DNA of 27,714 bases from a virus (lineage: Duplodnaviria; Heunggongvirae; Uroviricota; Caudoviricetes): IMG/VR virus record IMGVR_UViG_2778261035_000014. The stretch is one strand, 5' to 3'. The translations under genes and the position numbers were made by a program. How positions within the stretch are numbered: the stretch's first letter is position 1; the number at the start of each line of letters is the position of its first letter. Shown piece after piece: positions 786 through 19,083 of this stretch. The notes under the pieces were generated by a model, which made no database searches, had not been told where the DNA came from, and worked only from the letters and a program-made list of their open reading frames with translations.

Positions 786-832
786 TGGAGCGGGCGAAGG
801 GAATCGAAAAGGCTTGCTCTAAGCACCGGAAA
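786..832. repeat. Left att junction: 22-bp core tggagcgggcgaagggaatcga (786-807) plus 16-bp motif ctctaagcaccggaaa (817-832)
   Basis: The core is identical to 14043-14064 and the 16-mer to 13978-13993. The core's reverse complement TCGATTCCCTTCGCCCGCTCCA has a T-loop, acceptor 3' strand and CCA, matching my recollection of tRNA-Gly (glyU-type). The adjacent sequence does not fold into a full tRNA. Confidence 0.6.
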
Positions 833-900
833 AGATAAACCAAACAGACGTTTACGTAAATCCACGGTAACTAGTAGCGGTAGCTTACTAGGTTAAGACC

Positions 901-2115
901 ATGACGATCAAGGGCAAAGGAACAAATTATCTTTACGTAAACAGTGACGGGATTTATATCATCCAGCTTCATATTCCCGTTTACATGCGCCACCTCTGGA
1001 ACGGTCGCAAGATGCTTAAAAAATCAACAGGCACTCGCGATCTTGTGTTGGCTCGTAGGTTTCGTGATCAGTACCTGATGGAGTTCAGAAGGCTACAGGC
1101 GCAATTCAACCCAAATGCTTATCTCCTCAAGATTCAGTCAGCCATTACCGATCTACGTTTCGTTGGTGCTGCATCTACTAATCTCGTTCCAGATTTTCAG
1201 ACAGCCACCAAAGGGAAACCTTCAACGCCAAAGTTAAAAGACCTTTGCGACGAATACATGAAGGTGTATTCAGACAGGCGGAGCTACTCCACTTTGCAAA
1301 AGTCTGCCCGTGCTGTCGAGGCGTTTACGAAATCCATAAAAAGACCAGCGATTACAATTGGCAGTATTGGTCGCCGTATGGTGACGGAGTTCCTGGAGGC
1401 TAACCAAGGCAAGTTTTCACCTCAAACGTTGCAGAACTGGCTAACCTCTTTGGGGAGTCTGTACGAATTCGCCAAACGTCGATATGACGCAATCCCGGAC
1501 AGTAACCCGTTTCACGGTCACAACCTCGAAGCACGGCGCACCATTGAAAGTTATCAACCGTTTGAAGCCAATCAACTGGATACCCTTATCAGAGAAGCGG
1601 ATGACGTTCTACGCGATGTCATATTAATTGGGCTGTATTCAGGAATGCGACTTGATGAGATCGCCAGCATTAAACGGGATGAGATTGTAATGTTGGAGGG
1701 TGTCAGATGTTTCTTTGTCAGCAAGTCCAAGACTGTAGCCGGGGTGCGGTATGTTCCGATCCACTCGCTACTGATGGGGATTGTTGATAAGCATCTGACA
1801 CAGAACAGTGGTGAATATCTTCTGGCACAGTCTAATAACATCATTCGGAAGGATGGCAAGCGAGGTCCGTGGTACAGCCAAAAGTTCACCCGGCTGCGTG
1901 ATAGCGTTTTGCCAACAGCTACAGATCGGCAGTGCTTCCACTCTTTGAGAGGGATGTTCATCACCTGCCTGGACCGGGCAGGAGTTCCCGAACAACGGAT
2001 CGGAGCCATTACGGGGCACACAGAGCAGAAAGCGAAAACTGAAGCATTCAGAACCTACAGCAAAGGCGCGGGGATGAAGGAACTATCAGAGTATGTGGAG
2101 TTGGTGAATTACTGA
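901..2115 (+). CDS. int: Tyrosine-type site-specific integrase (phage integrase family)
   Basis: 404 aa. C-terminal catalytic motifs are visible: SGMRLDE (Arg), HSLRGMF (His-x-x-Arg), GHTEQ...RTYS (His/Tyr). Its C-terminal half is about 70% identical to the 14141-15361 product. Confidence 0.9.
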   Translation: MTIKGKGTNYLYVNSDGIYIIQLHIPVYMRHLWNGRKMLKKSTGTRDLVLARRFRDQYLMEFRRLQAQFNPNAYLLKIQSAITDLRFVGAASTNLVPDFQTATKGKPSTPKLKDLCDEYMKVYSDRRSYSTLQKSARAVEAFTKSIKRPAITIGSIGRRMVTEFLEANQGKFSPQTLQNWLTSLGSLYEFAKRRYDAIPDSNPFHGHNLEARRTIESYQPFEANQLDTLIREADDVLRDVILIGLYSGMRLDEIASIKRDEIVMLEGVRCFFVSKSKTVAGVRYVPIHSLLMGIVDKHLTQNSGEYLLAQSNNIIRKDGKRGPWYSQKFTRLRDSVLPTATDRQCFHSLRGMFITCLDRAGVPEQRIGAITGHTEQKAKTEAFRTYSKGAGMKELSEYVELVNY

Positions 2116-2136
2116 AAAATAGGGGGCGAGCCCCCT
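2115..2136 (-). terminator. Intrinsic terminator hairpin between convergent genes
   Basis: Stem aggggg/ccccct (2121-2126 / 2131-2136) with loop cgag; on the minus strand it is followed by a T-run, 7 nt downstream of the 2143 stop. Confidence 0.4.
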
Positions 2137-2142
2137 AAAGTG

Positions 2143-2421
2143 TTATTTAGGCCATTGTTCTTTAATAAAATTAGCAACCTCTGCCGACAAGTTGAACCAA
2201 CTTGCAACATTGTTGCTTGCATCAACAACGATTAATTTATCGTCTGCATCCATAGATTTTCGCACAATTTCCGCAGCTTGCGAGGCGGTATAAGTTGAGT
2301 TCACATACCAGTTCGATTCTGTGACTTTTGCCCAAGCTCCTAATGATTGGATGGCTTTATGTACTGCCGGGTAGTCTTTGGTCTTGATCAGGTCGTAAGT
2401 TACAAAGAGGTTATTTGCCAT
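2143..2421 (-). CDS. Hypothetical protein (92 aa)
   Basis: ORF with ATG at 2421 (MANNLFVTYDLIK...) preceded by a GGAG Shine-Dalgarno; the longer ORF-track start is GTG. No family recognised. Confidence 0.55.
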   Translation of the reverse strand: MANNLFVTYDLIKTKDYPAVHKAIQSLGAWAKVTESNWYVNSTYTASQAAEIVRKSMDADDKLIVVDASNNVASWFNLSAEVANFIKEQWPK

Positions 2422-2610
2422 TTCGCTTCTCCATGAACGCCATAACACCGAATTTTTAACTACGTTAGCGTTATAGCGACTTCTAGCGACTTCCGTAAAC
2501 GGTCAGTTATCAAACAATTGACACTGGTCATAAAACCAGTAAAAACTTTTTTCCGAGCTTGCTAACTTTGCCGCTTCGCTTCTATCATAACCACTACATA
2601 TTGTGTTTAT

Positions 2611-2619
2611 TGATATAAT
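2611..2619 (+). promoter_or_regulatory. Extended -10 promoter element TGATATAAT
   Basis: Exact TGnTATAAT match about 45 nt upstream of the 2664 ATG; no good -35 needed. Confidence 0.35.
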
Positions 2620-2663
2620 AAATACAATATATCCAAACATCCATCCCGTGAATAGGTGTTGAA

Positions 2664-2912
2664 ATGGCGAACAATGATAAGCAATCCTCGAAAGATGTAG
2701 CACATCTGGCAGCAGAGACTCTAAACAACCCAAACGCCTCTGCGATTCAGAAAAGTTTAGCGGGTTCGGTGCTATCACAAGCAGGAACAAAAAATCAGAC
2801 TGGCGCAAACATGGAAGCCAAAGCATCCGCAGCATTGAAAAACCCACGCTCAAGCGAGGTTACTAAAACCTTAGCTGGTTCGGTTGTTTCCCAATCGAAT
2901 AAAAAGCGCTAA
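2664..2912 (+). CDS. Small hydrophilic protein with an internal repeat (stand-alone moron-like gene)
   Basis: 82 aa with AGGTG Shine-Dalgarno. Internal repeat (Q/T)K(S/T)LAGSV(L/V)SQ occurs twice. Has its own promoter and terminator. Confidence 0.55.
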   Translation: MANNDKQSSKDVAHLAAETLNNPNASAIQKSLAGSVLSQAGTKNQTGANMEAKASAALKNPRSSEVTKTLAGSVVSQSNKKR

Positions 2913-2946
2913 AAAAAAGCCGGGATTAACCCGGCTCTCATGTTTT
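2911..2946. terminator. Bidirectional intrinsic terminator
   Basis: A8 tract, then stem gccggg/cccggc (2919-2924 / 2930-2935) with loop attaa, then tgtttt. It reads as hairpin plus T-tract on both strands, between convergent stops at 2912 and 2938. Confidence 0.6.
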
Positions 2947-3150
2947 CAGCTTTCGTTGTCGCTGTTCGCTCAAGTAGTACCTGATAGCGCTGTCGAATCC
3001 ATGCGTATGGATGCGGTCAAGAAGGCTGGAACGACTACACTCAAGCCTGCGTGCTAACGCTGACATGTTGATGATCGCATCATCGCCTTTACCGTCCAGA
3101 ATCCACTGCATCAGCGGCATGTTGCCAGTACCGATCAAAGCTAATTTCAT
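2938..3150 (-). CDS. Small helix-turn-helix DNA-binding protein (70 aa)
   Basis: ATG at 3150 with a perfect AAGGAG Shine-Dalgarno 6 nt upstream. HTH-like segment MSALARRLECSRSSLLDRI. C-terminus AIRYYLSEQ resembles the 17329-17544 product (AVQYYVSKQ), and both sit just downstream of the capsid gene. Confidence 0.6.
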   Translation of the reverse strand: MKLALIGTGNMPLMQWILDGKGDDAIINMSALARRLECSRSSLLDRIHTHGFDSAIRYYLSEQRQRKLKT

Positions 3151-3263
3151 ATATATCTCCTTTCCTTTGCCTCCAGCACCGAAGGTGTCTCGCAATAGCG
3201 AGAGTGCTTCGCACCGTTAGCCTCGCCAGCAGCGGGGGCAATGCGCCCCCAAAATCCGCTGTC

Positions 3264-4280
3264 TTACGCCGCGTCATCCATCGTAATTTTCAAAACGAAG
3301 TCCGGACGCATTGGGATCTGAATTTGTGATAGCTCGCTGACCACCTCATAATTCATGAACTTATCACGCAGAACGTAATGGTAAGACGGATAAACCGGAC
3401 CATTAGCAACTTCTGCGTGGCGTGAGGCTGGCGTGCAGTAGGTCATATAAGGTGAAAGGTCGCCTTCAACAACATTGGAGAACGTCGCCAGCATGTAGCC
3501 TTCACCATCTGCAATGCCATATAGCGGATCGTCAACCTGCACCACTGTTACACGCCCGATGTTATATCGATCATATGCACCCAAAGTGTCAGGGAAAATG
3601 ATGTCACGGGACGTAGCACCAAACAGAGCCGCCTGATATGCGGTTGGGTTGCCTTGAATGGCGGTGAAAAGACTCGGACTCGCCAGCAGATAAACCTGCT
3701 TGATGCTGGAAGACCAGCCACCCAGATTTTTCTTCAGCAGCGTGACAGCGTTCTGCATCTCAGTAATGACGTTGGCACTGATGCCAGTTTTCACCACAGC
3801 AGACGGCTGGTTAATACCCCAGAAGGTTTGCCAGTTCAGATCAGGACCTTCACGTAGGTGTGTCGCCTCTACAGTATTGTGAAGCAGGCTCTGCGCCATG
3901 GCATATTCAACATCACGGCGGGTTTGCAGGTAGTGCTTCAGGGTATGATTAGCAACTACATCTTCAGCGGTCATCTGGCGATTTGTTCCCGGCTGACGTT
4001 TCCCCTGCCAATCCTGGCTGGTGATGGTTGAGCTGTAGACATGCAGTGGAGCCTGAACGGTCACGTTAGCCGCTTTAGGGAAGTTTAGACCCGACATTTC
4101 AGAACCATAACGGGCAACTGATTTAGTCACTTCACGCTGCACATCTTCAAGTGTGTCGAGTGCGATGATTTGCGTATCACTTGGACGGCTGGTAAAGATC
4201 CCCAGGCTGGACAGAAGGAACCCCTCGCCGCTTGGCTTCACGAATTGACCAGAAAGATTAGTAAAATCACTTAATTTCAT
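3264..4280 (-). CDS. Major capsid protein, lambda gpE-like (Phage_cap_E-type)
   Basis: 338 aa against about 341 for lambda E. By eye it shares block patterns with my recollection of gpE, such as a C-terminal RPDFVLKIT motif. Paralogous to 17665-18693 (DWQGKRQPG vs DVQGKRKPG). AAGGAG Shine-Dalgarno. Follows a ~115-aa gene, as in lambda D-E. Confidence 0.7.
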   Translation of the reverse strand: MKLSDFTNLSGQFVKPSGEGFLLSSLGIFTSRPSDTQIIALDTLEDVQREVTKSVARYGSEMSGLNFPKAANVTVQAPLHVYSSTITSQDWQGKRQPGTNRQMTAEDVVANHTLKHYLQTRRDVEYAMAQSLLHNTVEATHLREGPDLNWQTFWGINQPSAVVKTGISANVITEMQNAVTLLKKNLGGWSSSIKQVYLLASPSLFTAIQGNPTAYQAALFGATSRDIIFPDTLGAYDRYNIGRVTVVQVDDPLYGIADGEGYMLATFSNVVEGDLSPYMTYCTPASRHAEVANGPVYPSYHYVLRDKFMNYEVVSELSQIQIPMRPDFVLKITMDDAA

Positions 4281-4298
4281 ATTGTTATCTCTCCTTGA

Positions 4299-4643
4299 TT
4301 AGATTGCGGTGTTTGCGTCAGCAATACGGTTGCCTTGCTTAACAAGGGCAGCGTAAGCAGCATCTTTTGCAGCAGCCGCTACAACCAGACCTGATGGATT
4401 GAACACGCATTGGGTATCACTGATAACAAGGCTACGGGCATCACCAGCGACTTGATTTTGCAGAGCTACAGCACAGTTATCAGCATCTGCTGCAACGTAT
4501 GCCGCGCCAGTGGTCGGGTTAATCACATCACCACAAGTCACATCAGCAGCCAGATCAAGGATCACGGTGCGCTTATGAAAGATCGGTGAATCGGTATAAA
4601 CCAATACATCCTGTGGGGTTTTGCTTTCGTATTCGAATGCCAT
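4299..4643 (-). CDS. Putative head decoration protein (gpD-like by size and synteny)
   Basis: 114 aa from the ATG at 4643, which has a GGAGA Shine-Dalgarno (ORF-track start is 4658). Directly upstream of the capsid gene with an 18-nt gap. Paralog at 18712-19083. Product is assigned from size and position, not from clear sequence identity. Confidence 0.45.
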   Translation of the reverse strand: MAFEYESKTPQDVLVYTDSPIFHKRTVILDLAADVTCGDVINPTTGAAYVAADADNCAVALQNQVAGDARSLVISDTQCVFNPSGLVVAAAAKDAAYAALVKQGNRIADANTAI

Positions 4644-4694
4644 ATTTTGTATCTCCATACAGTTTTTATAATCCGGCGAATATGCCGGGTTGAG

Positions 4695-4722
4695 TTGAAA
4701 AAATACCGTCCATCGGACGGCA
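4695..4722 (-). terminator. Intrinsic terminator or attenuator upstream of the capsid operon
   Basis: Stem ccgtcc/ggacgg (4706-4711 / 4715-4720), followed on the minus strand by TATTTTTT. A second hairpin ccggc/gccgg at 4673-4688 lies between it and the start codon. Confidence 0.4.
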
Positions 4723-4996
4723 TTCTTCTATTCGTGTTCCAACAGAAAAAGACCAAGGCGAGAATATCCCGCCCGGTGTAGGTCAGTAGTTTTCTGATGG
4801 AGAGATTTGGAAAGCATGAGTGTGTTCACGCTTCAGGAATAAGGAGGCGGCAACGCTCCAAAGAATGGGTAAGGAGACCCAAAAACGTTGCCACCTGATG
4901 CCGTTAGTGTCCGGCTGACAGCCTTCCGAGGATGAAAGGGCTTTGGCAAATCTCCGATCCAAGGTCGGAGAAAATTCTTCTACACCCGTTTACGGG

Positions 4997-5016
4997 TTAG
5001 CAACATATGTTGCTAA
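4997..5016. promoter_or_regulatory. Perfect 20-bp palindrome ttagcaacatatgttgctaa (candidate operator)
   Basis: Exact dyad symmetry, preceded by hairpin cccgtttacggg (4985-4996). Sits in the 650-nt ORF-free gap between the tape-measure-like gene and the capsid genes. Confidence 0.4.
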
Positions 5017-5313
5017 TCGCTCTACGATACTTTTCTAATACAGCCAGCGGCAATGGCCTAACCTTCCCGTGAGAGAGTGCGGATTATTGGCTGTATGAGA
5101 AAAGGCCCGCACGGTGTTCACACAGGCACTTTAAGTAAGGAGAAGGAATGACAACGGCTGTTGTACGCACATACAATTTAAATCATCACCCTATGCAATT
5201 ATTTTAACACGAATGATTATCATTTGCAACAACAAAAACAATAACATGGCGAATTTAACGGCCCTCTCTCGTGTGGGCCAATTTACTACGTCATTTTTGA
5301 CGGAACGATGATT

Positions 5314-7482
5314 TTAGTCCGCAATCCCAAGGATGAGGTTATTCTGCGCCTGGTTGTTTTCCCTTATCTTGGTATCAATCAGACCGTTAATCGCACCATC
5401 ATTAACATTCACCTCAAGAGGCGCAAACTTGATCTCAGCTTCGCCAGTGACCGCAACAGGAATCGGCTGTCGTTGAACTATGCTATCAATTGTCGGAACC
5501 GTGAACGTTGGTTGCTGGGGTGTCAGATAGTTCAGGCCAGGAACATTCAACGCTAGTGCTGGATCGTTATACGCCATGCCTGAGCCGATATTGCTCGGAG
5601 CGGAACTATCCAGCCACGGGTAAATCTGCTTAAGCGTCTGACCGATGCTACGTGGATCAAAGCCGGTCTTTTCCTTAATCCAATCGGCAGCACCATTTGA
5701 GGAGTCATCTACCACGCTCGTATAAACCGCATCCGGCAATGTTGCGCCTTTCTTGAGTTCTTCACCGACTCGACCAGCGAAGGAAAGAATGTTGGTGGTT
5801 AGCTCACCAAGAGCAACGCCGAGGGCATCGGAAATTGGGATCAGTCCAGTCATATTCTGACGTAGAGTGTCAGTATTGGCAGCGTACTGCCCCAGGCCTT
5901 CAACAAACGAGGCTGAGAAGTGATCCGCAAGACTTGTTTGTACTCGGTTGTACTCAGCACCCAAAGCTGCCAGCTTATCAAGGTTGGCCTGCTGTGCATC
6001 AGATAGGGTCCATCCTTCAGAAGCGAGTTGATGCATACGGGCAATAACTTCATCACCTTCCCCACTGATACCCGCCATCAAGACCGATCCGTCATTGATC
6101 GCTTCCAAAAAATGACGCATGGAATTCTCTGTCCAGCCGAATTGTTTACCCAACTGCCGCACATAGGTAACGAAGGTCCCCATGTCCAATTTCTGAAGCT
6201 CGCCAATCACTTTTTGTGCTGTTCGCTGGTTGGTTTTGCTAAGAACTGCATTCACCAGATCGGCAAGTTCACCACCTCCGCTGAATGTTGTTACCCCTTG
6301 CTTGTTAGTTTTAAAGGAACCGGTATTCAGTAGCTCACCTGCTTTCTCGAAGTAATCCTTATTCATGGACGCATACTTATCTACGGTCAGGTCGTACCCT
6401 GTACGCTTCTGTACAACGTCATGGATAGCATTAAATTCAAGCTGGCTAATATCATACTGCCTTAATTGCTGCGCCTCTCTGGAGCGTTCAAGACTCCCCT
6501 GGAGGGTCTGACCAACACGAGCAACTCCCATTGAACCAATCAGGGATCCCCCTGCAATTACACCAGTGGCAGCGAGGCCACCATAACCACGTTCGCTACG
6601 TTCACGTCTCAAACGTTGAGCATTAACGCGCCCTGCTCGCTCTACTTTAGCCCGATCCTTAACCATCTGGCGGTTAATACGTGCCTGCCGCCTGGTTTCC
6701 AGAGTCGCTTTAGCAAGTTCATGGCGCATTTCTGCGATGGTATAACGCTGCTCGGAGTATCCCTTGGTAGCCTCTTTGATTGCCTGCACCGCTTTCATTT
6801 TGTCAGCCAGGCTGGCACCTTCGATATGGCTGATCGTTAAACTGGCGCGGCGTAGGGTGTCGTATGCAGTGCTCTGGCGCTTGAGGCTGGCTTCTTTCTC
6901 ACGCTGGCGCTTCTCTTCCAGGGCCATCGCCTTTTTGGTGGCTGCGATGTCAGCAGCAACAGCGCCGTGACCACGGTTCATTGCGTCAGTCTGACGGGAA
7001 ACAAGACCAGGATCGTAATGTTGACCGCCCATGTTAGGGTTGTAGGTCATCGCTCGTGATCTGGCTGCGGCCTGCACTTTTGCGGATATATTGGCTAAAC
7101 GGGCGTTTTGTCTCCGGATCTGTTCACTATCTGCCAATTGTTGAGCCTGCCCTCTGGCGTTAAGAGCCTGCATTTTCCGGGCGTGAGCCTCTTCCTGTTT
7201 TGCGATCTTTGCCTGGGCTTGGGCCTGGCGTTGTTGCTCTAGCGAAAGCTTTTGAGCCATTTTGAGGCGCTGTGTTTGAGCGCGGGCTGCTTCAAGGGCT
7301 GCTTTACCCTCACTCTGGGCGGTTCGCTTCTGAGCTTGCTCCAGCGCTTTAGCAGGTTTGGTAGTTAATTGCTGAAGTGACAGAATTTTCTTCTTCGCTG
7401 CTTCGTAACTAGAGCGGGAAATTTCCCAGCTTACGATATTGACGGTGCTCGTCACTATCTTGTTGGTTGTTCCACTACTCAT
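5314..7482 (-). CDS. Long coiled-coil protein with a glycine-rich hydrophobic segment (tape-measure-like, function unresolved)
   Basis: About 722 aa from the ATG at 7482 (MSSGTTNK...), which overlaps the upstream stop in ATGAGTAG. N-terminus is Ala/Gln/Lys/Arg-rich and helical. Central segment GYGGLAATGVIAGGSLIGSMGVARVG. Analogous to 15469-17310. Confidence 0.6.
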   Translation of the reverse strand: MSSGTTNKIVTSTVNIVSWEISRSSYEAAKKKILSLQQLTTKPAKALEQAQKRTAQSEGKAALEAARAQTQRLKMAQKLSLEQQRQAQAQAKIAKQEEAHARKMQALNARGQAQQLADSEQIRRQNARLANISAKVQAAARSRAMTYNPNMGGQHYDPGLVSRQTDAMNRGHGAVAADIAATKKAMALEEKRQREKEASLKRQSTAYDTLRRASLTISHIEGASLADKMKAVQAIKEATKGYSEQRYTIAEMRHELAKATLETRRQARINRQMVKDRAKVERAGRVNAQRLRRERSERGYGGLAATGVIAGGSLIGSMGVARVGQTLQGSLERSREAQQLRQYDISQLEFNAIHDVVQKRTGYDLTVDKYASMNKDYFEKAGELLNTGSFKTNKQGVTTFSGGGELADLVNAVLSKTNQRTAQKVIGELQKLDMGTFVTYVRQLGKQFGWTENSMRHFLEAINDGSVLMAGISGEGDEVIARMHQLASEGWTLSDAQQANLDKLAALGAEYNRVQTSLADHFSASFVEGLGQYAANTDTLRQNMTGLIPISDALGVALGELTTNILSFAGRVGEELKKGATLPDAVYTSVVDDSSNGAADWIKEKTGFDPRSIGQTLKQIYPWLDSSAPSNIGSGMAYNDPALALNVPGLNYLTPQQPTFTVPTIDSIVQRQPIPVAVTGEAEIKFAPLEVNVNDGAINGLIDTKIRENNQAQNNLILGIAD

Positions 7483-7858
7483 TGCCCCCCCCCTGCTGCT
7501 TGATGATATTGCCGTAACGATCAGGATCAGATTTTGCGAGTGCAGCAGCCGCTGCTTTAGCTTTCGCCAGCATTTCAGGATCGATATGGTCAGCGGTATG
7601 TGAGACAACCGGACGGCTATCAGCACCCAACGATTTTTTAATCCGTTGTTCAGCACCAAAGGTGTCTCGCATTGGTGAGAGGGCTTCGCCCTTTTTACCC
7701 GTGGGTGTGTCAGCCGGGGCTGATTTGAGCAACTCCGGATGTTGATCCAGAAAGTTATCGGTGACGCTCTTCAGATTGTCCCGCGCTTTTTGAAGTTCGT
7801 ATTCCTCCGGTGTCATGCCATGCATGGCGGCGAAAATCCGGTCTTTTATTGTGGTCAT
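7475..7858 (-). CDS. Hypothetical protein (127 aa)
   Basis: ORF with a GGAGA Shine-Dalgarno, translationally coupled to the downstream long gene. Contains the MRDTFGAE segment whose DNA (7655-7695) is about 85% identical to 3175-3217. Confidence 0.45.
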   Translation of the reverse strand: MTTIKDRIFAAMHGMTPEEYELQKARDNLKSVTDNFLDQHPELLKSAPADTPTGKKGEALSPMRDTFGAEQRIKKSLGADSRPVVSHTADHIDPEMLAKAKAAAAALAKSDPDRYGNIIKQQGGGNE

Positions 7859-8029
7859 TTTTATAGTATCTCCAGAGAAGGATGCTCCCGCCGATCAGGA
7901 CGTGACGAAGCGCCACCCAGCCCCAAGGCAGGAAAAAGATGTAATCAAGGTTCATTGGCCCCCGATGTGGGGTTGGGTCAGTGCATCGCAAGGCGATTAA
8001 CAGCAATTGCTGTTAACCCTTTCAGGGTG

Positions 8030-8608
8030 TTAGTAGTGCAGGCGTGGTGAACGTCGCTGCGGGTTCTTCTGTTTTCTGGCGACTGTTTCACGATAGGCCA
8101 CAAACAACGGATCAGTATGATCCGGCATTCGAGATGCCATTTCTTTTTCAGTGATTCCTTCACGCTTAAGCAGCGTCACCACGGTGAATAGAGGCAGTTG
8201 AAGGTCAGCACAGATTTTTGCCAGCATTGCGCCGGATTCGTAGTACATTCGGGCCATTCGCTTAGTGGCATACTGACTGGTATTGCTTATCTTACGACAG
8301 CGAGGATTCCACGAGTTATCGTAAAGGCCTTTTACCAGGTCATACGGCAAGCGTAGGAGCAGCGCCGTTTTGCCTGGGGTGTAACCATGCACGAGCATTT
8401 TTTTAGCAGTCTCGATCAGCGAAGAATCACGAGAGCGGGATTTGTAAAAACGTGACAAATCGGGGGTTTCAGCACCGGAGGTGTTTACCTCTGGTAAACT
8501 GCTTCGCACCGTAAGGGATTCAGCCGTCAGGCCGTTGGCTGTCTGGCTGATGCCAGTTACTTTCTCACACAATATTCCTCCAGTATCAAAAAGGGATCTC
8601 AGGATCAT
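8030..8608 (-). CDS. Hypothetical HTH-containing protein (possible regulator or small-terminase-like); start uncertain
   Basis: ORF of up to 199 aa whose 5' end overlaps the rep-like gene. HTH-like segment GAMLAKICADLQLPLFTVVTLLKREGI. No family recognised with confidence. Confidence 0.35.
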   Translation of the reverse strand: MILRSLFDTGGILCEKVTGISQTANGLTAESLTVRSSLPEVNTSGAETPDLSRFYKSRSRDSSLIETAKKMLVHGYTPGKTALLLRLPYDLVKGLYDNSWNPRCRKISNTSQYATKRMARMYYESGAMLAKICADLQLPLFTVVTLLKREGITEKEMASRMPDHTDPLFVAYRETVARKQKNPQRRSPRLHY

Positions 8609-9389
8609 CTTCATCGTAGTGATATACATCCGGCCCGTTAACTTGTTGCTTTACTGGCGCTGGTTCTGTTGCGGGTATATCGTCAGGCCGCATCTGTTCT
8701 CCTGGCTCACCCATATTGGTTTTGCCTTTCAGTTTCCATACAAGTTTGATCTCATCCTGCCAGGTTGTAGCACCATGGGATTGCGCCCAGCGTCGCGCCT
8801 CTGGAACCAAATCCCCACGAGAGGTAAACGAGTTGGCGAGCCATGGTATCCCGACAACATTTTCCCCAGCTGACTCACTCAGTGATGGATCATCACTATT
8901 GGATAAATCAACATCGACAGGAATATCCACAGCAGGTACGCCGTCTGGTTTTCCAGTAACAGGCGCGGCAGATGCCACCACGAAAGATTCCACAACAGGT
9001 TTTTGCTCATTCTTACCGCTCTCCTCGGTTTCCACTTTTCTATTACTCGCCTGCGCGGAATTATGATCGTCAAGAAAAACCATCAGCGATGGATCGAGTT
9101 CGACCGGAGAAATTTTGTGTGTACTCCCCTTCACTTCCTCAAAAGTGATCATTCCAGCTTCACGAAGCTTGTTCCTGAAATTGCGAACGGCTTCGGGCTT
9201 GCAGCCGCAACGTTTACCAATCGTGCCAACAGATTCGTAATAAGTTCTGCCTGTTTTGTCATAGCTGTAAACCAGAGATAACAAAATTTTCATGTTGCCA
9301 TTAATGGTCAGGCCGTTGTACTCGGTAAGGTCGAGAACGCTGTATTCAAGTTTTACAAAATCCTTACTGTCCCGGTTCTGTTTGCTCAT
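8586..9389 (-). CDS. Replication-initiator-like protein with N-terminal winged-helix DNA-binding domain
   Basis: 267 aa with a GGAGA Shine-Dalgarno. N-terminal segment KILLSLVYSYDKTGRTYYESVGTIGKRCGCKPEAVRNFRNKLREAGMIT is typical of phage or plasmid replication initiators. Acidic Pro-rich C-terminus. Positional analogue of 21938-22603. Confidence 0.55.
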   Translation of the reverse strand: MSKQNRDSKDFVKLEYSVLDLTEYNGLTINGNMKILLSLVYSYDKTGRTYYESVGTIGKRCGCKPEAVRNFRNKLREAGMITFEEVKGSTHKISPVELDPSLMVFLDDHNSAQASNRKVETEESGKNEQKPVVESFVVASAAPVTGKPDGVPAVDIPVDVDLSNSDDPSLSESAGENVVGIPWLANSFTSRGDLVPEARRWAQSHGATTWQDEIKLVWKLKGKTNMGEPGEQMRPDDIPATEPAPVKQQVNGPDVYHYDEDDPEIPF

Positions 9390-9567
9390 TCTGTTCTCCG
9401 TAAAGTGTCGCCTTGCTGGCTAATGCTGGTTTGATGTCTGGTGTGTTGTCGAAAATGTTCGCGGCAGTCTCCAAGATTTCATTACAGAGCCGTGCCAGGG
9501 GCTTGTCCTGCCTTTTGGCCTCAGCCAGTAGAGCCTGATAAACGTGCTGTTGAAATTTGATGTTCAT
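9364..9567 (-). CDS. Ribbon-helix-helix (CopG/Arc-like) DNA-binding protein
   Basis: 67 aa. MNIKFQQHVYQALLAEAKRQDKPLARLCNEILE is clearly homologous to the element-2 small ORF MNINFDSATYNALLNRAKAEGKSIPKLVNELLI. Overlaps the rep-like gene start. Confidence 0.55.
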   Translation of the reverse strand: MNIKFQQHVYQALLAEAKRQDKPLARLCNEILETAANIFDNTPDIKPALASKATLYGEQNEQTEPGQ

Positions 9568-9655
9568 TCAAGTTGTCCTCCTCGTTCTAGGTACAAAAGA
9601 CCTCCCGCCAGTGGTCGCCCAGAAGGCGAACCGGCTCAGGTTTTGTTCAGTGTTG

Positions 9656-10102
9656 TTAGGCTGCGGTTGCTGTCGGGAATTCGCCAGCCAGTGGATAACC
9701 GTAGGCTTCAAGTTCTTCTGCACCGCTGACAGCCACAAGCAGCATAATGATCTGCTCATGAGTCAGAGAAAGACCTAGCTTATCCAGATAAAGCTGTCGA
9801 TGGCCTTCCAGGATTGGACGAAGTATATCGGTCAACTCCATTCCAGCAGCGCGTTGATTACTCAGCGGCTTAAGGATGGTTTTAAACGCTCGCGCCTGCT
9901 TCGCCTTTTTGCGCTCCTGCTTCAGAATATGCAGGCAGACGGCAATCTGAGGAAGTCGGGCATGTACAGCGTCTGCCCCGCCGTTTCTACTAATGAAGGC
10001 CCACAAGGCTGATTTGGTGTATTTGCCGTTCAGGATGAGATCAGCGATCTGCTCGCCTGTCATAGTGGTCAGGTCGAGACGTTGGGATTTTGGTTTATTC
10101 AT
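9656..10102 (-). CDS. Hypothetical protein (148 aa), first gene of the leftward operon
   Basis: ORF with a GGAGA Shine-Dalgarno; no family recognised. Confidence 0.5.
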   Translation of the reverse strand: MNKPKSQRLDLTTMTGEQIADLILNGKYTKSALWAFISRNGGADAVHARLPQIAVCLHILKQERKKAKQARAFKTILKPLSNQRAAGMELTDILRPILEGHRQLYLDKLGLSLTHEQIIMLLVAVSGAEELEAYGYPLAGEFPTATAA

Positions 10103-10850
10103 TGGGTTCTCCGTTCTGTTAAAAGAATTATTCGCGGAGGTTCTATTTGTAACCCATTTTGTATTGCCGTGAGGTTGACAAGGAATGTCGTGATGACGGC
10201 AGAATTATTCGAGGATTCATAGGTAAATCATTACCCTACTAGAATCTATTGTATCAGATTTGTCTGTAAATAGCAATCATTATCATGTAGGATTTTATAA
10301 TGCATAATAATCACCATAACACTACAAGTTTACAAAATCTTTGTCAATAGTGCCAAGCCGTTCTATAACGCGTTCTGCGGGTACTTGTCACCATAGGAGT
10401 ACATACGTATCACCACCACCGTTTAAACGCCATAGAGAGGCTTTAAGGAGGTCTGTTAGTTAACCCGCGCCGCCCCGGAGTGAACCGGACAGATGCAAAG
10501 CAGTCCTCTACGCCGTGCTCCGCTCCACATATGGCGAACAAGTTCGCAGCTTCCACACAGAGTAAGAGCGTAGCTCTATGGCGTAGCCTGCCGGGTTACC
10601 CGAGTCACAGAGCGGAGCGATGTGTTAACGAGGGTTAGAAGGTCACGAGATGGCGTGGCTGTTTCACGTCAGCGAAGGTGAGCTTCTTACCACAAACATA
10701 TCTGAAGTGGCTGACCAGCCATTGCAGAGCGGAGCGATGCAGAAGCATCACTATTAAAACTAACAGAATGACCAACCGTCATTCCGTGCTCTCGACCTGG
10801 AGGTACTTTTCTTATCAGTTCTTTTATGGGGATTGTTATTTATTATTATT

Positions 10851-10932
10851 GTGCTCGAAAATCGACTACCCCCTACTCGAAAATCGTGCAGGTAGGTGCT
10901 CGAAAATCGAGGGGGTGGGTACACGAAAATCA
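10851..10932. repeat. Iteron-like array: four ~23-bp direct repeats with core CTCGAAAATCG
   Basis: gtgctcgaaaatcg (10851), tactcgaaaatcg (10875), gtgctcgaaaatcg (10896), acacgaaaatca (10921). Spacing is 22-24 bp, about two helical turns. The spacers ctaccccct and agggggtgg are complementary. Confidence 0.55.
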
Positions 10933-12213
10933 TGCAGGTATCACCGGGTGAGAATTTTCCAAGTCATCCACGCGACCAACGCACCGATGAAAACTTCCGG
11001 TTTGATATGTCCGCGTCATGCTTCAATGGCACAATCAACGGCAACACCTGAGGCGGTCCAAACACCTGATCCGCTCCGAGAATTGATCATCTCCCTCCCC
11101 TGCTTTCATCTGAAAGTACCGACCATTCTCCGCGCTGGCTGAAGATTGGCAACCCTATACTGATTTTCTGTCAAAATTTGGTGGATGATCTTTACCATTG
11201 GCTATCTTGTAAACAAAATAGATTAAATGCACCTCAAATAGCCCATAATCCGTAGTTAATCATGCTAAAGTGGTCACTATGCGTACAAATCAGAAGTCTG
11301 AACCTATGGGCGTTATGGTGTGATGTACATAACGAAGCCTTGCCAGCACTGGAAGCGTGAAATTTGGTGGCTGGTATCTGGATCAAGCAACACTCAATTT
11401 CTGAACCTTCGCTTCAAAAAAATAATAAAACAACACACAAAACCAAAACAGATGCCCTCTGGTGGCTGCTGTATCGCGCTGTGGGATGCTGTGGATTATC
11501 GGTATGTCAGTTCACGTTTGTGTAGAGATAACGCCGCTACGGGTTTCTGGTTGAGCGTAGGAGGGATTGGTGGGTTGGCTGTTTACATTGTTGTGGGAAA
11601 TGGTACGAAACAGTGGCGGCCTGGCTCGGTGAATATCACCAGGTGATGGCAGACCTTCAGCCCGTTGTGGTAACGTCGCCGTAGTAGCCCTATGTCTGCT
11701 GCGAATAGAAAAATGTGCTTTTATGGCATTTGATGCACTGTAAACTTCAAAGGCCTGAAACCTGAAATTGTGTGGTGACCAGCCAAACTCATCCAAAATC
11801 CTTGAACAAGAGAACTCACCTCAAATCCTCCTGAATGCTTTCCTTCTGTTGGTGAAATCGCTGTTGTGTACCACGCTTCGCATCAACGCTCCGAAAAGCA
11901 ATACCTGACTATTCCAGTCAAGTACATGTAAGATACAATATGTTAAATGGCTGTACAATTAGTGAACACAGGCACTTCAAAACATCAAGTTATCTCCCTT
12001 GCCTCAGCCCAAAGCAGCATTGTGTAACTGCACTGCTTGTTGCAGTGAGGCGTGTCGCTGAAGGCATCACGTAGCGATATTTGGCGAAGAAAAGCGCTTT
12101 TCACCGAGGGCCTGGGCTGACGGTCTAGCAGATCACCAACAGAGCTGGGGATATTTTCAACAGGAGAATGTAAACTTGGAAGATAAAGAGCCGGGACACT
12201 TACGGGGCAGGTT

Positions 12214-12429: not shown

Positions 12430-12442
12430 AACGGAATGTCTG

Positions 12443-12931: not shown

Positions 12932-12953
12932 TCCAAATTTATTAGTCTAGAAG

Positions 12954-13977: not shown

Positions 13978-14064
13978 CTCTAAGCACCGGAAACATAAAG
14001 ATTTTTTAGCTGATTTTAAGCGTAAAAAATCGCTGGAGCGGGCGAAGGGAATCGAGGAAACCCA
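13978..14064. repeat. Inter-element att junction: 16-bp motif (13978-13993) and 22-bp core (14043-14064)
   Basis: Same two motifs as at 786-832 but in the opposite order and with 49 nt between them. Confidence 0.6.
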
Positions 14065-14140: not shown

Positions 14141-15361
14141 GTGTCGATCAAGAGCCAAGCATACTTATTTAAAAGAAAAGATGGGATCTGGATGTTTCAG
14201 ATTTTTGTTCCTAAATACTTACGTCATCTTTACCCTTATAAGTTGTGGAGAAAAAGCACATCTACACGAGATCTGAATGAGGCGAGAAGATTCAGAAACC
14301 ATCTATTATTAGAATGGGAGGAACTAAAGCGAAAACATAATCCTGATAACCCCGAAAGGAGGTTACAAAAAGCTATTGAATCCTTACATTCAGAGGCAAG
14401 GGCCAATAAAAACACGCAAAGAGCCGTAAAACGCGGTTATGCACCGCCTTCCCTGTGCCTAATACGTGACGAATACGCCGAATGCTACAGAGAGCGTCGT
14501 TCATACTCAACACTACAGAAATCAGCAAGGGCCGTTGAGCTATTTTTACAAAGCATTCAGAAAGATGATATTCATATTGAGAAAATAGGCAGACGGCTTG
14601 TAACAGTATTCTTAGATGACCAGAAGCAACGAGGAGCAGCCGATCAATCTCGTCAAAACTGGCTTACATGCTTAGGATCGCTCTATGAATTTGCTAAACG
14701 CCGTTATGACGGAATACCAGACAATAACCCTTTTCACGGTCATAACCTCGAAGCACGTCGCACAATCGAGAGTTATCAACCGTTTACACCTGAACAAATG
14801 CAAAAGCTACTTGATGCAGCGGAGCCGGAGATCAGAAATATTATTTTAATGGGCTTGTTTTCAGGATGCAGATTAGACGAACTGGCAAGCCTGAAAAAGT
14901 CAGAGGTTGTAACTGTGGAAGGAATACGCTGTTTTTATATCAGCAAGAGTAAGACTAAAGCAGGGATCAGACACGTTCCGATACATTCGAGACTATCGAT
15001 TATTGTCGATGAATATTTAAATCATAATTATGGTGAATATTTGTTCCCTCACTCGAACAAAGTAAAAAGAATCGACGGCAAGAAAGGCCCGTTCTATTCT
15101 CAAGCATTCTCACGTTTACGTCGTAACGTCTTGCCAATCGCTACAGATAGACAATGCTTTCACAGCTTGCGCGGGATGTTTATCACTTGTCTTGATCGTG
15201 CCGGAGTGCCTGAACAGCGGATCGGAGCCATTACCGGACATACAGAGCAGAGAGCTAAAACAGAAGCCTTTCGCACCTACTCACAAGGGGCAAGCATTCC
15301 AGAATTAGCTGAATATGTAGAATTAGTAAAATATGAATTAAATATTGATTTTAAGGCGTAA
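14141..15361 (+). CDS. int: Tyrosine-type site-specific integrase (second, diverged copy)
   Basis: 406 aa with a GTG start and AGAGGA Shine-Dalgarno. Same catalytic motifs (SGCRLDE, HSLRGMF, GHTEQ...RTYS). N-terminus differs from integrase 1. Confidence 0.9.
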   Translation: MSIKSQAYLFKRKDGIWMFQIFVPKYLRHLYPYKLWRKSTSTRDLNEARRFRNHLLLEWEELKRKHNPDNPERRLQKAIESLHSEARANKNTQRAVKRGYAPPSLCLIRDEYAECYRERRSYSTLQKSARAVELFLQSIQKDDIHIEKIGRRLVTVFLDDQKQRGAADQSRQNWLTCLGSLYEFAKRRYDGIPDNNPFHGHNLEARRTIESYQPFTPEQMQKLLDAAEPEIRNIILMGLFSGCRLDELASLKKSEVVTVEGIRCFYISKSKTKAGIRHVPIHSRLSIIVDEYLNHNYGEYLFPHSNKVKRIDGKKGPFYSQAFSRLRRNVLPIATDRQCFHSLRGMFITCLDRAGVPEQRIGAITGHTEQRAKTEAFRTYSQGASIPELAEYVELVKYELNIDFKA

Positions 15362-15468: not shown

Positions 15469-17310
15469 TTAACTTGGTGCTTGCCCAGACAGAGCCGCCA
15501 ACGTGAAACTACGTTCAAAATCTTGTTGGATACTTCCCACTTTGTAATCGAGGTATGATCCAAGCTGACTACCATCAGGGGCGATATTCACATCCACCTT
15601 GCTTTCCGGCACGTTTACGACGATGTTCGGTGCATACGTCATAGATGGGGTAGTGTTCAGATCACGGCTAACGTTCTGTTTCAGGGATTGCACGTTATCA
15701 GATGGGCTTGCATAGTTCTGAATTGCAGTTCCGCCAGTCGTTGGCTTGTCTTCCGTGCCAGGAATAGGATCTAAGCCTAAAGCACTACGACCCCAATCAA
15801 CCATACCACCTACAAACGAGTCCTTATAATACATACCGGACGAATCAAGGTTTTCATGCTTGTTCTCTGGGTTGATATTTTGGTATGCAGCAGTAAGCCA
15901 CGATACAGCACCAGCAAAGGCGCTCATCATTTCAGCCGTTGAGCTTCCAAGTTCTTTAAACAGAGGATTCAAATCTTTCAACATTTGCGCCCACTCTTCA
16001 CCAGCTTGAGCATCGAACTCTTCACCAAATCCAGTCATGATAGCTTTCTTACTACCTTCCCATGCCATATTCATATTTGCCTGTACCGCTTGCAGACGTT
16101 CGGCAGCGTCCAGATCCGCTTGTGTATAGGTGGCATTGGCCTTTTGCATCTTAACGATGGTCTTGTTTAGCTCTTCACCATTACGACTAAAGGCACCACG
16201 GAAATATTGCAAATCATTGCCCAGGTCTTCAAGGATGTGCCCGATTTCTTGATCTGATAATCCACGGCGTTCACCTTCTTTCACTACAGCGCCCAGGAAA
16301 CCTAAAGGATCAGTCTGGAAACCTTTAACCTGTTCAGGTGACCAGCCATATTTATTAAGGATGTTATCGACGGCACCATTACCGCCAGCCCAGCGACCTT
16401 TCTTAGCGTCCCATTTGGTATTCCCTACGGATTCACCTAAACGTTCCTGAACGTCTTTAAGGTTGTCTTGACGTTGGTCTACGGAACTATCAACACCGTG
16501 TTCTAAGCCGTACTGGTTGAGAGCTAACAGGGCGTTAGTGTTTACGTTGACAGCCTTTGCCTTGCGGTTAGTGTCTGTGATCTTGCTTGCCTGATCGGTT
16601 ACGGTATTGAATATCGCAGCACCGCCGAAAGTAGCAGCAGTGAGAGCGGCACCGCCTACCATTGCACCGACACCAGCGCCCATATGACCACCTTTAAGCT
16701 GTTTAGCCATATGTGGGTATTTACCGCCATCAGCCGCCACCTGGCGAGCTTTTACAGCAGCCGCACGGCGTTCTAACGTGATACGATCACGGATCAGGTG
16801 ATTCATCTTAGCCTGACTTATAGCGCCTTTCTCATACGCTGCCGTTTGTGCTTTGATGTATTGCAATGTTTTGTAGTACTGGGCGCTGTTCATACCGTCG
16901 CCCATACGCCCTTTTTTGATGCCTTCAAGCTGGCGGAAAGCTTGCTGGCGTTTAATCTCTGCCTTCTCTGCTATTGTCGCTTTAGCGCGGATCTGTTTAT
17001 CGGCAGCTATAGCGGCTTTAGCCTTCGCTTTAGCTTCTGCCTTTGCCACCTTATCAGCGTTCTTCTTGTCTGTTTGAGCTTGCTTGTCTGACGCTTTAAC
17101 ATCAGCTTTAGCCTGTGCAGCTTTACGAGCCTTTACCAGATCATGAGCATCGTCTATAGCTTTTTTAGCCTTCTTCCCTTTCAATGTTGGATTGGTCAGG
17201 TTTTCCATTTCTTTTTGAAATTTCTTCCCTGCATCGCGTGCTTTCTGCAATGATGCAAAATCAACTTTAAATACAACCTTGTTTGTTAAGGTTGAGATGT
17301 TTAAATCCAT
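15469..17310 (-). CDS. Long coiled-coil protein with glycine-rich hydrophobic segment (tape-measure-like, function unresolved)
   Basis: 613 aa with an AAGGA Shine-Dalgarno. TolA-like KAKAEAKAKAKAAIAADKQIRAK helix, then GGHMGAGVGAMVGGAALTAATFGGAAIF. Lies downstream of the capsid and HTH genes, unlike element 1. Confidence 0.6.
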   Translation of the reverse strand: MDLNISTLTNKVVFKVDFASLQKARDAGKKFQKEMENLTNPTLKGKKAKKAIDDAHDLVKARKAAQAKADVKASDKQAQTDKKNADKVAKAEAKAKAKAAIAADKQIRAKATIAEKAEIKRQQAFRQLEGIKKGRMGDGMNSAQYYKTLQYIKAQTAAYEKGAISQAKMNHLIRDRITLERRAAAVKARQVAADGGKYPHMAKQLKGGHMGAGVGAMVGGAALTAATFGGAAIFNTVTDQASKITDTNRKAKAVNVNTNALLALNQYGLEHGVDSSVDQRQDNLKDVQERLGESVGNTKWDAKKGRWAGGNGAVDNILNKYGWSPEQVKGFQTDPLGFLGAVVKEGERRGLSDQEIGHILEDLGNDLQYFRGAFSRNGEELNKTIVKMQKANATYTQADLDAAERLQAVQANMNMAWEGSKKAIMTGFGEEFDAQAGEEWAQMLKDLNPLFKELGSSTAEMMSAFAGAVSWLTAAYQNINPENKHENLDSSGMYYKDSFVGGMVDWGRSALGLDPIPGTEDKPTTGGTAIQNYASPSDNVQSLKQNVSRDLNTTPSMTYAPNIVVNVPESKVDVNIAPDGSQLGSYLDYKVGSIQQDFERSFTLAALSGQAPS

Positions 17311-17664: not shown

Positions 17665-18693
17665 TTACGCTACTGTGATCTGTACAGTGAAGCCTACGCC
17701 GTGGTTTACAACCATCTGGCTATTCTCGGTAACTACGTTTACAGCGTCGTTACGTGCTGGGCTAAATGCATAGCTGTAATATTCAGCCGATCCAGAGTTC
17801 AGAAGGTCGAACGTTGAAGAAGGAGCGCCGAAAATGTTCTGATAGACGTTAGAGCCTTTAGCGAACTTCGGAACAGCCACCGCATCAGAAGTCATATGAG
17901 CCAGCAGCAGCGGATCGGTAACTTTGATCAGATCAATGTTAGTGCCTGGAATAGTGAAGGTAGTCACACCTGGCAGCAGGGAGCGCACACTATAAACGAT
18001 GTTTGCGTCATCGGTAGGGCTTGCATACTGGAACGCGTTAACCATGCCAGCACTGTAACGGATAGCGTTAAATGCAGCAGGTTTACAGAATACAACGATA
18101 CGCTCTACAGCAGCCGCCTGGCTTTGTGCTTTAGTAATAACGTCTGTATGCATCTGATCGAATTGCTGGAACACCATAGAAGGCGTGGTGCTTGATGCGT
18201 CGATGGTTGCAGTCAGCGGAACAGCACTAAACAGATCGCCCCACTGAATCAGCACATCGTCAGTTTTAGGGGTGTAGGTGCGACCACTAAACAGGGAAGC
18301 AGCCAGTACGCTTTCTTTAGTACGCTGGAAAGCAATGTGGTGCTTAGCAACATATTCCGCGTAGATATCTGTCAGAGTCTCTTCAACGGTAGCGCCTGGT
18401 TTACGTTTGCCTTGAACGTCTTGCGGCTTAATCATATCTTCACGCAGGAAGTAGGGGATCTCTACTAAAAATTCTTTACCCTGTTCACGTTTAGTCACGT
18501 TATGTTCAGAAGAGAAACGAGAGGTTTCTTTGTTGAACAGAGATTCGTTAGTTTCCACCAGTTGGCTAACAGCCACTTTATGAGAACTCACACCTACCGG
18601 ATCAGTGAAGTCCAGAGTAGTTAACAGGAAGTTGCGAGAGTCGTGCAGACTAAACAGCGGAGCCAGATCGACGGATTCATTACCAATAATCAT
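17665..18693 (-). CDS. Major capsid protein, lambda gpE-like (second copy)
   Basis: 342 aa with an AAGGA Shine-Dalgarno. Paralogous to the 3264-4280 product and preceded by the small partner gene. Confidence 0.7.
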   Translation of the reverse strand: MIIGNESVDLAPLFSLHDSRNFLLTTLDFTDPVGVSSHKVAVSQLVETNESLFNKETSRFSSEHNVTKREQGKEFLVEIPYFLREDMIKPQDVQGKRKPGATVEETLTDIYAEYVAKHHIAFQRTKESVLAASLFSGRTYTPKTDDVLIQWGDLFSAVPLTATIDASSTTPSMVFQQFDQMHTDVITKAQSQAAAVERIVVFCKPAAFNAIRYSAGMVNAFQYASPTDDANIVYSVRSLLPGVTTFTIPGTNIDLIKVTDPLLLAHMTSDAVAVPKFAKGSNVYQNIFGAPSSTFDLLNSGSAEYYSYAFSPARNDAVNVVTENSQMVVNHGVGFTVQITVA

Positions 18694-18711
18694 TATGTTT
18701 ATTCCTTTATA

Positions 18712-19083
18712 TTAAGATGTGAATACAGTGTTAAAACCAGCCATCTGGAAGCCTTTAGCAGCCAGAGCAGCAATAGCGGCTTCTTTAATAGCGCCTTCAA
18801 CATTCAGAGCATCAGACTTGATGCAAACCAGTCCGGCATTGCTACGCAGCACGTTAACGGTTTTAGCGTCGCCAGCGGATACCGCATCAGACACAACCAC
18901 AAGAACATCGCCGCCGCTTACATATTCAGCGCCGTTACTGGTAATCAGATCGCCGCATTCCACATCAACCGCCAGATCAACGGTAAAAGATTGCACACAA
19001 CCGAACTCATCAGTTGCATAGCTCACGATATCGGTAAATGATTTGCGAACTGGAAACAGATCGCTCATATTAATAATAGCCAT
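18712..19083 (-). CDS. Putative head decoration protein (gpD-like by size and synteny)
   Basis: 123 aa, 18 nt upstream of the capsid gene. Positional and size analogue of 4299-4643. Confidence 0.45.
   Translation of the reverse strand: MAIINMSDLFPVRKSFTDIVSYATDEFGCVQSFTVDLAVDVECGDLITSNGAEYVSGGDVLVVVSDAVSAGDAKTVNVLRSNAGLVCIKSDALNVEGAIKEAAIAALAAKGFQMAGFNTVFTS

Follow-up and report, generated by a model that had tools for sequence, protein, structure and literature searches.

We analyzed a stretch of 27,714 nucleotides (IMG/VR virus record IMGVR_UViG_2778261035_000014; the whole stretch is called the window here), which is Escherichia coli chromosome (positions 1-14055 are 99.9% identical to strain 90-1) and carries two islands in tandem at a tRNA-Gly site. 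The gene of interest is located in the first of these, island 1, and encodes a 722-amino acid (aa) protein that we named TMP1. Judged by sequence homology, TMP1 is a true tape measure protein (TMP) homologue over its whole length. It is a member of the phi92-type TMP superfamily and departs from it in genomic context only: its gene is not sited between genes for a tail assembly chaperone and a baseplate hub, nor downstream of tube and sheath genes, as the island contains no such genes. Based on the data given below, we lean towards the view that TMP1 is a functional TMP of the phi92 gp134 type, encoded by an integrative, self-replicating satellite of phi92/rV5-like myoviruses (Stephanstirmvirinae and relatives), and that it replaces the helper TMP in chimeric contractile tails. 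Dependence on a helper and incorporation into the virion are the parts of this view that we infer. The gene and its upstream partner are located as follows.

5314..7482, minus strand: TMP1, the 722-aa TMP homologue (based on the open reading frame [ORF], PHROG, BLASTP, a superfamily profile and dN/dS).
7475..7858, minus strand: 127-aa gene coupled to TMP1 by an 8-nt overlap, at the position that the tail assembly chaperone gene occupies in phages.

The assignment of TMP1 is based on several types of comparison. The PHROG TMP families 5255 and 36805 match its N-terminus (E ~1e-10). A tblastn search of 50,697 phage records aligned residues 318-576 with two Klebsiella phages (E 3e-22), one of which, FBKp34, is classified in the Stephanstirmvirinae, and in a pairwise BLASTP comparison TMP1 and gp168 of FBKp34 were 26% identical over 437 aa (E 1e-32). 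The gene encoding gp168 (647 aa) follows the sheath gene and three small unannotated genes at the tube/chaperone positions and precedes the baseplate genes, which is the TMP position. A HMMER search of 1.84 billion representative proteins retrieved only 57 clusters related to TMP1. From these we assembled a set of 25 sequences, consisting of 23 full-length relatives together with TMP1 and its counterpart in island 2 (TMP2), which was used both for a PHROG scan and for building a profile. All the PHROG families matched by any of the 25 sequences are TMP families, and we refer to the superfamily as phi92 gp134 / PHROG 16051-2854-5255-36805. The profile, which includes the query, matches PDB entry 21vq_V, i.e., phi92 gp134, with an E-value of 5e-81. 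Cryo-EM of phi92 has shown that gp134 is a trimeric TMP in the baseplate, where its residues 631-656 are resolved (PMC13450770). In addition, the top named matches of the TMP1 model in a Foldseek search of predicted viral structures were all TMPs; a Foldseek search of the AlphaFold2 model against PDB gave non-significant coiled-coil matches only.

An alignment of TMP1, its island relatives, FBKp34 gp168, phi92 gp134 and TMP2 is colinear from an N-terminal motif to the C-terminus, with whole-alignment identities of 17-24% between TMP1 and the TMPs of Stephanstirmvirinae. The order of the parts is the same in TMP1, TMP2 and FBKp34 gp168: the N-terminal motif, charged helices, a Gly-rich hydrophobic segment, an SGGGExAD motif and a Pro-rich/beta C-terminus. 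The Gly-rich segment directly follows the charged helical region in each case, starting at residue 301 in TMP1, ~208 in TMP2 and ~248 in gp168. The C-terminus of TMP1 aligns colinearly, at low identity, with that of phi92 gp134 up to its end, and the C-terminal region of the island TMPs aligns with the part seen as a trimer inside the phi92 baseplate. Thus, the island TMPs resemble those of Stephanstirmvirinae (phi92 gp134, FBKp34 gp168 and the phAPEC8/ESCO5-type proteins) in whole-length homology, domain order and size (613-722 versus 647-659 aa). They differ from them as follows: the N-terminal helical region of TMP1 is ~50 residues longer, and the TMP1 gene is located in a chromosomal island without flanking tube, sheath, chaperone or hub genes, whereas the phage genes are part of 140-150-kb genomes.

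The initial annotation of this DNA, made from the sequence alone, had described a tape-measure-like protein, a view with which the PHROG matches, the similarity to FBKp34 (E 1e-32), the profile match to phi92 gp134 and the viral-structure matches all agree. It had left the choice between a tape measure, a scaffold and an ejection protein open; homology decides in favor of the first. A confident match to a relaxase- or secretion-type family, the result it had named as contrary, was absent from the Pfam, NCBIfam, PADLOC and Foldseek PDB comparisons. The features on which it was based are also present. Residues 51-150 contain 24 Ala, 18 Gln and 11 Arg per 100 residues, so that Ala, Gln and Arg make up about half of this region; the extended helical part of the protein is rich in Lys as well. 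AlphaFold2 predicts helices at 23-144, 158-218, 225-243 and 249-297, i.e., nearly continuously from residue 23 to 297. This agrees with the helical, Ala/Gln/Arg-rich N-terminus that had been described for a protein of ~722 aa. The Gly-rich hydrophobic segment, likewise noted, comprises residues 301-324, and the most hydrophobic 19-mer of the protein, LAATGVIAGGSLIGSMGVA (residues 303-321), lies within it.

TMP1 is a real gene, as follows from the selection acting on it and from its maintained length: dN/dS against five homologues is 0.15-0.27, indicating purifying selection, and protein length is kept at 700-727 aa in the TMP1 clade. The gene starts at the ATG at 7482 and stops at 5314. It shares the 8 nt ATGAGTAG with the 127-aa ORF, whose TAG stop codon overlaps the ATG of TMP1, and a G-run is located just 5' of this ATG. 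RefSeq calls the identical two coding sequences in the identical island of strain 90-1, and the stop-start overlap between the small upstream gene and the TMP gene is kept in four related islands. Hence, the translational coupling to a 127-aa gene that had been proposed holds. The longest mechanical ORF would give a 781-aa version of TMP1 starting at a TTG at 7659; it overlaps the upstream gene, which makes this start unlikely.

The 127-aa protein belongs to a family of 82 clusters that is confined to these islands. In its AlphaFold2 model both ends are helical and are joined by a disordered, variable linker (pTM 0.29). We considered the possibility that it is a tail assembly chaperone, as its gene position would suggest, and found this to be unsupported: the family occurs in islands only and the model is not chaperone-like. 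Scans of the 722-, 127-, 180- and 148-aa proteins of the island against Pfam, NCBIfam and PADLOC gave no match.

The element encoding this gene pair is bounded by 22-bp direct repeats of the tRNA-Gly 3' end and has a size of 13.3 kb; a public Logan contig of 13,284 bp corresponds exactly to the stretch between the repeats. The other features of island 1 are the following.

786..807: att repeat at the left end of island 1, a 22-bp direct repeat equal to the tRNA-Gly 3' end.
901..2115, plus strand: tyrosine integrase of island 1 (Pfam, PHROG, RefSeq).
2938..3150, minus strand: conserved 70-aa protein with a possible helix-turn-helix (HTH), located after the capsid gene and conserved in related loci.
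3264..4280, minus strand: MCP1, major capsid protein (MCP), lambda gpE-like (Pfam, PHROG 29, RefSeq).
4299..4658, minus strand: Dec1, head decoration protein, lambda gpD-like (Pfam HDPD; 33% identical to Dec2 of island 2).
8030..8572, minus strand: conserved 180-aa protein (RefSeq, related loci; no family match).
8586..9389, minus strand: replication initiator-like protein, HTH_36 (Pfam and PHROG replication-initiation families).
10851..10944: iteron-like tandem repeats of 22-23 bp, a probable origin, in a ~2-kb ORF-poor stretch.
14034..14055: att repeat at the right end of island 1 and the junction with island 2, the same 22-bp repeat.

MCP1 matches Pfam Phage_cap_E over its full length (E 4e-4; 20.1 bits, which is below the curated cutoff of 22.9 bits) and PHROG 29 (E 6e-10), and RefSeq names it 'major capsid protein'. 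It is 21% identical to, and colinear with, the MCPs of phi92 and FBKp34. The HDPD match of Dec1 (E 3e-4) is also under the curated cutoff; in related loci the decoration gene is always located directly upstream of the capsid gene. The island also encodes conserved proteins of 67 and 148 aa and a few cargo genes. Genes for a tube, sheath, baseplate, portal, protease, scaffold, terminase or neck were not found in island 1 by Pfam, PHROG, NCBIfam or tblastn against the structural modules of phi92 and FBKp34, and in a tblastn comparison of all the island ORFs with these modules, matches were limited to the capsid and TMP genes of the two islands. The statements that no tube, sheath or baseplate genes accompany the TMP gene, and that the element lacks recognizable tail genes, are therefore correct for island 1; the initial annotation had overlooked the island's own capsid and decoration genes, its bounds and the second island that adjoins it.

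Island 2 occupies positions 14056-27714, in tandem at the same tRNA-Gly site, with its right end beyond the window. It has the same design as island 1 and is very divergent from it.

14141..15361, plus strand: integrase of island 2, 60% identical to that of island 1.
15469..17310, minus strand: TMP2, TMP homologue of 613 aa (PHROG 16051, E 6e-67).
17665-18693 (within 17665..19083), minus strand: capsid protein of island 2, 342 aa.
18712-19083, minus strand: decoration protein of island 2 (Dec2), 123 aa, 33% identical to Dec1.

TMP2 shares 30-32% identity with the TMPs of Phapecoctavirus and Justusliebigvirus, and the island 2 capsid protein, aligned over its full length, shares ~25% with the capsid proteins of these phages. 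Between the two islands, identity is 23% for the capsid protein, 33% for the decoration protein and 23% for the TMP. The gene order also differs, the TMP gene preceding the decoration-capsid genes in island 1 and following them in island 2. Island 2 encodes a replication initiator, and iteron-like tandem repeats of 22-23 bp are present at 23918-23963 in a ~2-kb ORF-poor stretch. The repeats of both islands are probably replication origins served by the initiator-like protein of the respective island. The positional equivalent of the 70-aa protein is a 71-aa protein encoded after the capsid gene, which has a weak HTH match; BLASTP detected no similarity between these two post-capsid proteins. 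Retention of precisely this set of virion genes by two islands so deeply diverged argues most strongly that the capsid/decoration/TMP trio is a functional unit rather than debris.

The traits of a satellite are thus present: an integrase and att sites, an initiator-like protein and iterons (both assigned by homology only), and an incomplete set of virion genes. Only capsid, decoration and TMP genes were detected and, therefore, a helper would be required. The phi92/phAPEC8/FBKp34 group of virulent myoviruses, with genomes of 140-150 kb, is the lineage from which the island obtained its capsid and TMP genes. According to the model that we favor, infection by a helper phage would cause the island to replicate, and small shells, sized for 13 kb, would be built from the island capsid and decoration proteins, with the portal and packaging machinery coming from the helper. 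A trimer of TMP1 would dock via its conserved C-terminus in the helper baseplate hub, and the helper tube and sheath would polymerize around it, so that the satellite ruler would determine how long the resulting chimeric tail becomes. At ~1.5 Å per residue, the 722 aa of TMP1 versus the 647-659 aa of the phage TMPs would make this tail ~9-11 nm (about two tube rings) longer than a tail built with a phage TMP; TMP2, with its 613 aa, would make it ~7 nm shorter. At infection the TMP, with its Gly-rich hydrophobic segment, would leave the tail first and aid the conduction of DNA across the envelope. The 127-aa protein probably acts together with the TMP, either as a chaperone or as a factor favoring the satellite TMP over that of the helper.

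The best mechanistic model for such a process is provided by the PLEs of Vibrio cholerae, whose helper is phage ICP1. All PLEs encode a TMP that is ~20% identical to that of ICP1 and that is selectively built into chimeric tails consisting otherwise of ICP1 parts; these tails are shortened by 10 nm, which agrees with the difference of 95 residues (PMC12987554). Besides the TMP, PLEs encode a tail assembly chaperone, and some variants also a baseplate hub; PLE11 virions contain ICP1-encoded capsid proteins (PMC12987554). Like island 1, PLEs are small integrative islands encoding a TMP that is distant from that of a large virulent myovirus, and lack tube, sheath and most baseplate genes. In gene content, island 1 is different from PLEs in that it has its own capsid and decoration genes and a tyrosine integrase, and no recognizable chaperone or hub. 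The recombinase of PLEs is of the serine type, and the remodeling of ICP1 capsids by PLEs is carried out by TcaP.

Several observations weigh against the satellite model. The nearest phage TMP is just 26-27% identical to TMP1, a PDB phmmer search with TMP1 alone gave no match, so that the link to phi92 gp134 runs through intermediate sequences, and 8 residues of the C-terminal segment by which gp134 docks in phi92 are missing from the TMP1 clade. Divergence is very strong in the capsid and decoration genes as well, and neither MCP1 nor Dec1 had a tblastn match in the 50,697 phage records. In neither island of the window did a small ORF match a tail assembly chaperone or hub family in Pfam, PHROG or NCBIfam, whereas PLEs have genes for both, and the 127-aa partner is not chaperone-like in its AlphaFold2 model. 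Finally, a portal, scaffold, protease and small terminase would all have to come from a helper whose capsid protein is only ~21-25% identical to that of the island, which is demanding.

Part of these observations would also fit an interference function, which we regard as unlikely, albeit the most serious competitor. TMP1 would then be a non-structural, dominant-negative copy that binds hub, chaperone or tube proteins of the helper and blocks or derails the building of helper tails, thereby protecting the bacterial population or favoring the satellite. Tail assembly is a common target of satellites and prophages, as exemplified by Rta of PLE11, which targets the ICP1 TMP, and by the Tai systems; the absence of a chaperone and a hub from the island, and the strong divergence of TMP1 from phage TMPs, would be in line with such a decoy. 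However, a decoy would not need the conserved full length of 700-727 aa or a colinearity from end to end that includes both termini, and the tube initiator and adaptor genes carried by related islands (see below) point to building rather than blocking. The conserved full length, the retention of both termini and the presence of a tube initiator or an adaptor in related islands lead us to prefer a structural role over that of a pure decoy. In PLEs the satellite TMP is structural as well, and the two roles are not mutually exclusive.

A role on the capsid side has little to recommend it. The TMP would have been recruited for its long helices and would act inside the small capsids of the island, either as a scaffold or as a protein that is ejected from them. 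This possibility is suggested by the location of the TMP1 gene just upstream of the decoration and capsid genes, which is the place of the scaffold gene in phi92 and FBKp34, and by the lack of a scaffold recognizable by Pfam or PHROG in the island. Against it, in island 2 and in two related islands (L013 and L016) the TMP gene follows the capsid gene instead, there is no similarity to the scaffold genes of phi92 or FBKp34, and both the hydrophobic segment and the conserved C-terminal region, which is putatively hub-docking, are typical of TMPs.

It is even harder to maintain that island 1 is what remains of a larger, decaying prophage and that its TMP, capsid and decoration genes no longer have a role. 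Only three virion genes are left, and a rearranged locus with a truncated TMP (L011) exists among the relatives. Yet island 1 has an intact integrase and replication module between intact att repeats, the size (~13.1-13.8 kb) is constant in many genera and synteny is conserved, TMP1 is under purifying selection, two divergent islands have retained exactly the same subset of genes, and the phages to which these genes are related, large virulent myoviruses, do not lysogenize. Lastly, a cellular coiled-coil protein, e.g., one of chemotaxis, is effectively refuted: many homologues carry the label 'chemotaxis protein' in RefSeq/NCBI, and chemoreceptor coiled coils are among the non-significant Foldseek PDB matches (E 3-6), but TMP1 has no Pfam or NCBIfam chemotaxis domain, all its significant homology is to TMPs and the gene is always located inside a mobile island, so that the name is most likely a misnomer, a coiled-coil artefact, and a recurrent misannotation is hereby corrected.

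Returning to the satellite model, the distribution of TMP1 gives a view of the family to which island 1 belongs. Homologues with 73-100% identity are present in Escherichia, Enterobacter, Klebsiella, Cronobacter, Raoultella and Serratia, and more distant ones in Citrobacter, Pseudenterobacter and Buttiauxella (five loci, found by a genome scan with a narrower alignment). Nine further loci (L004-L012) repeat the order 148aa-67aa-Rep-180aa-127aa-TMP-spacer-Dec-MCP-70aa-integrase. The capsid module is mosaic: in six of these loci (L005, L006, L008, L009, L010 and L012) the capsid proteins are only 26-32% identical between islands, versus 45-83% (also given as 58-83%) for the TMPs, which suggests exchange of the capsid/decoration module or adaptation to different helpers. 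Relatives that are only 27-30% identical to TMP1 are again encoded in small islands and not in phages. Among the more distant islands, L013 (10001-12584) has the order Dec-MCP-TMP followed by a tube-initiator gene like Dit (distal tail protein), a Dit-like gene adjoins the TMP gene in L017 (8192-11294), and L016, a 13.7-kb element with the same integrase type, carries in addition a phiTE-type head-tail adaptor gene (6170-6643).

Among 5,426 complete E. coli genomes, 38 had island 1, with matches extending over at least 80% of the query in 11 of them. For island 2, coverage reaches at least 80% in 53 of these genomes, and parts of it match in 743, which may correspond to little more than a related integrase. 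The contigs of 13.1-13.7 kb were considered as possible free circular or packaged copies and rejected as such: they simply end at the att repeats, and a 30-nt terminal overlap in L016 equals the k-1 of the assembler. The IMG/VR matches lie within contigs of 28-62 kb and are uninformative on packaging; TMP2 had no match in IMG/VR.

Island 1 falls outside the definitions of cf-PICIs, P4-like satellites and classical PICIs. Like island 1, cf-PICIs are enterobacterial, have a size of 10-15 kb and encode their own major capsid protein. They are different in having the int-alpA-pri genes and a complete head and packaging set (MCP, portal, protease, connectors and TerS), whereas island 1 has MCP and Dec only, with no alpA, primase, portal, protease or terminase gene detected by Pfam or PHROG. 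The psu-delta-sid module and alpha primase of P4-like satellites were also without a Pfam or PHROG match in island 1. The mycobacterial EPIPs (Mycolicibacterium) are ~11-kb satellites that encode an MCP and a TMP, and form particles with small heads and an altered tail length (PMC12822802). Compared by description only, they differ from island 1 in having a serine integrase, TerS, a scaffold and head-tail adaptors, a siphovirus-type prophage as helper and an actinobacterial host. Ccm of SaPIbov5 resembles the island capsid protein in being a satellite-encoded homologue of the helper major capsid protein that redirects the capsid size of the helper and thereby offers a route to small capsids. 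It differs in being a single added subunit of a staphylococcal cos-type SaPI, without involvement of a decoration protein or a TMP.

Taken further, these comparisons raise the possibility, which we advance more tentatively than the role of TMP1 itself, of a widespread and undescribed satellite family in E. coli, Klebsiella, Enterobacter, Cronobacter and relatives. Its members would parasitize phi92/phAPEC8/rV5-like myoviruses with a minimal 'shell plus ruler' kit, their virions would be chimeric in both head and tail, and the TMP and its 127-aa partner would commit the tail parts of the helper to the particles of the satellite. We found no description of this island family in the literature. 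Until 2025-2026, satellites were thought to steal complete tails. To our knowledge, PLEs are so far the sole case of a satellite-encoded TMP shown to enter chimeric tails. The idea of a satellite-encoded TMP is thus already published, and the point of interest is the breadth of the family in clinically important Enterobacteriaceae, together with a tractable host. If verified, tail manipulation by satellites would be general, as it would also occur in an unrelated family that is common in E. coli, Klebsiella and Enterobacter, and E. coli would provide a second, genetically tractable system for studying the assembly of chimeric tails. The islands would also constitute a hidden resistance and transduction factor with respect to phi92-, phAPEC8- and rV5-like phages, which are candidates for therapy.

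Besides the genes, the DNA between TMP1 and Dec1 is conserved among related loci.

4659..5313, minus strand: conserved noncoding TMP1-Dec1 spacer of ~650 nt, with a promoter-like site, a covarying terminator hairpin and a further stem.

The promoter-like site is located at 5229-5201. It is followed by a terminator-like hairpin with a T-run at 5127-5105, which shows compensatory changes across loci, and by a conserved stem (5104-5088 / 5046-5030) with some covariation. The spacer is a candidate small RNA, or a candidate regulatory or packaging element, and is absent from Rfam, which had no match in the window. The noncoding DNA of the island at 10100-12214 was compared with phages for mimicry of cos or pac sites and gave no match; for the spacer, the only match was a 40-nt double hairpin at 4985-5024, CCCGTTTACGGG TTAGCAAC....GTTGCTAA. 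This hairpin is 92.5% identical (40 nt) to intergenic DNA of the Salmonella phages NINP13076 and SalP219 (Seunavirus, Vequintavirinae), and has one further exact match only, in IMG/VR. The resemblance to Seunavirus could be a hint to the helper group, or reflect a shared regulatory site.

Two other observations concern the cargo regions. Both islands encode, on the plus strand and near the tRNA-proximal end, homologous 71-aa proteins with a signal-peptide-like N-terminus (12214-12429 and 25846-26061) that share 47% identity. In addition to its main integrase gene, island 2 has a 224-aa tyrosine-recombinase-like gene in its cargo region, at 25178-25852.

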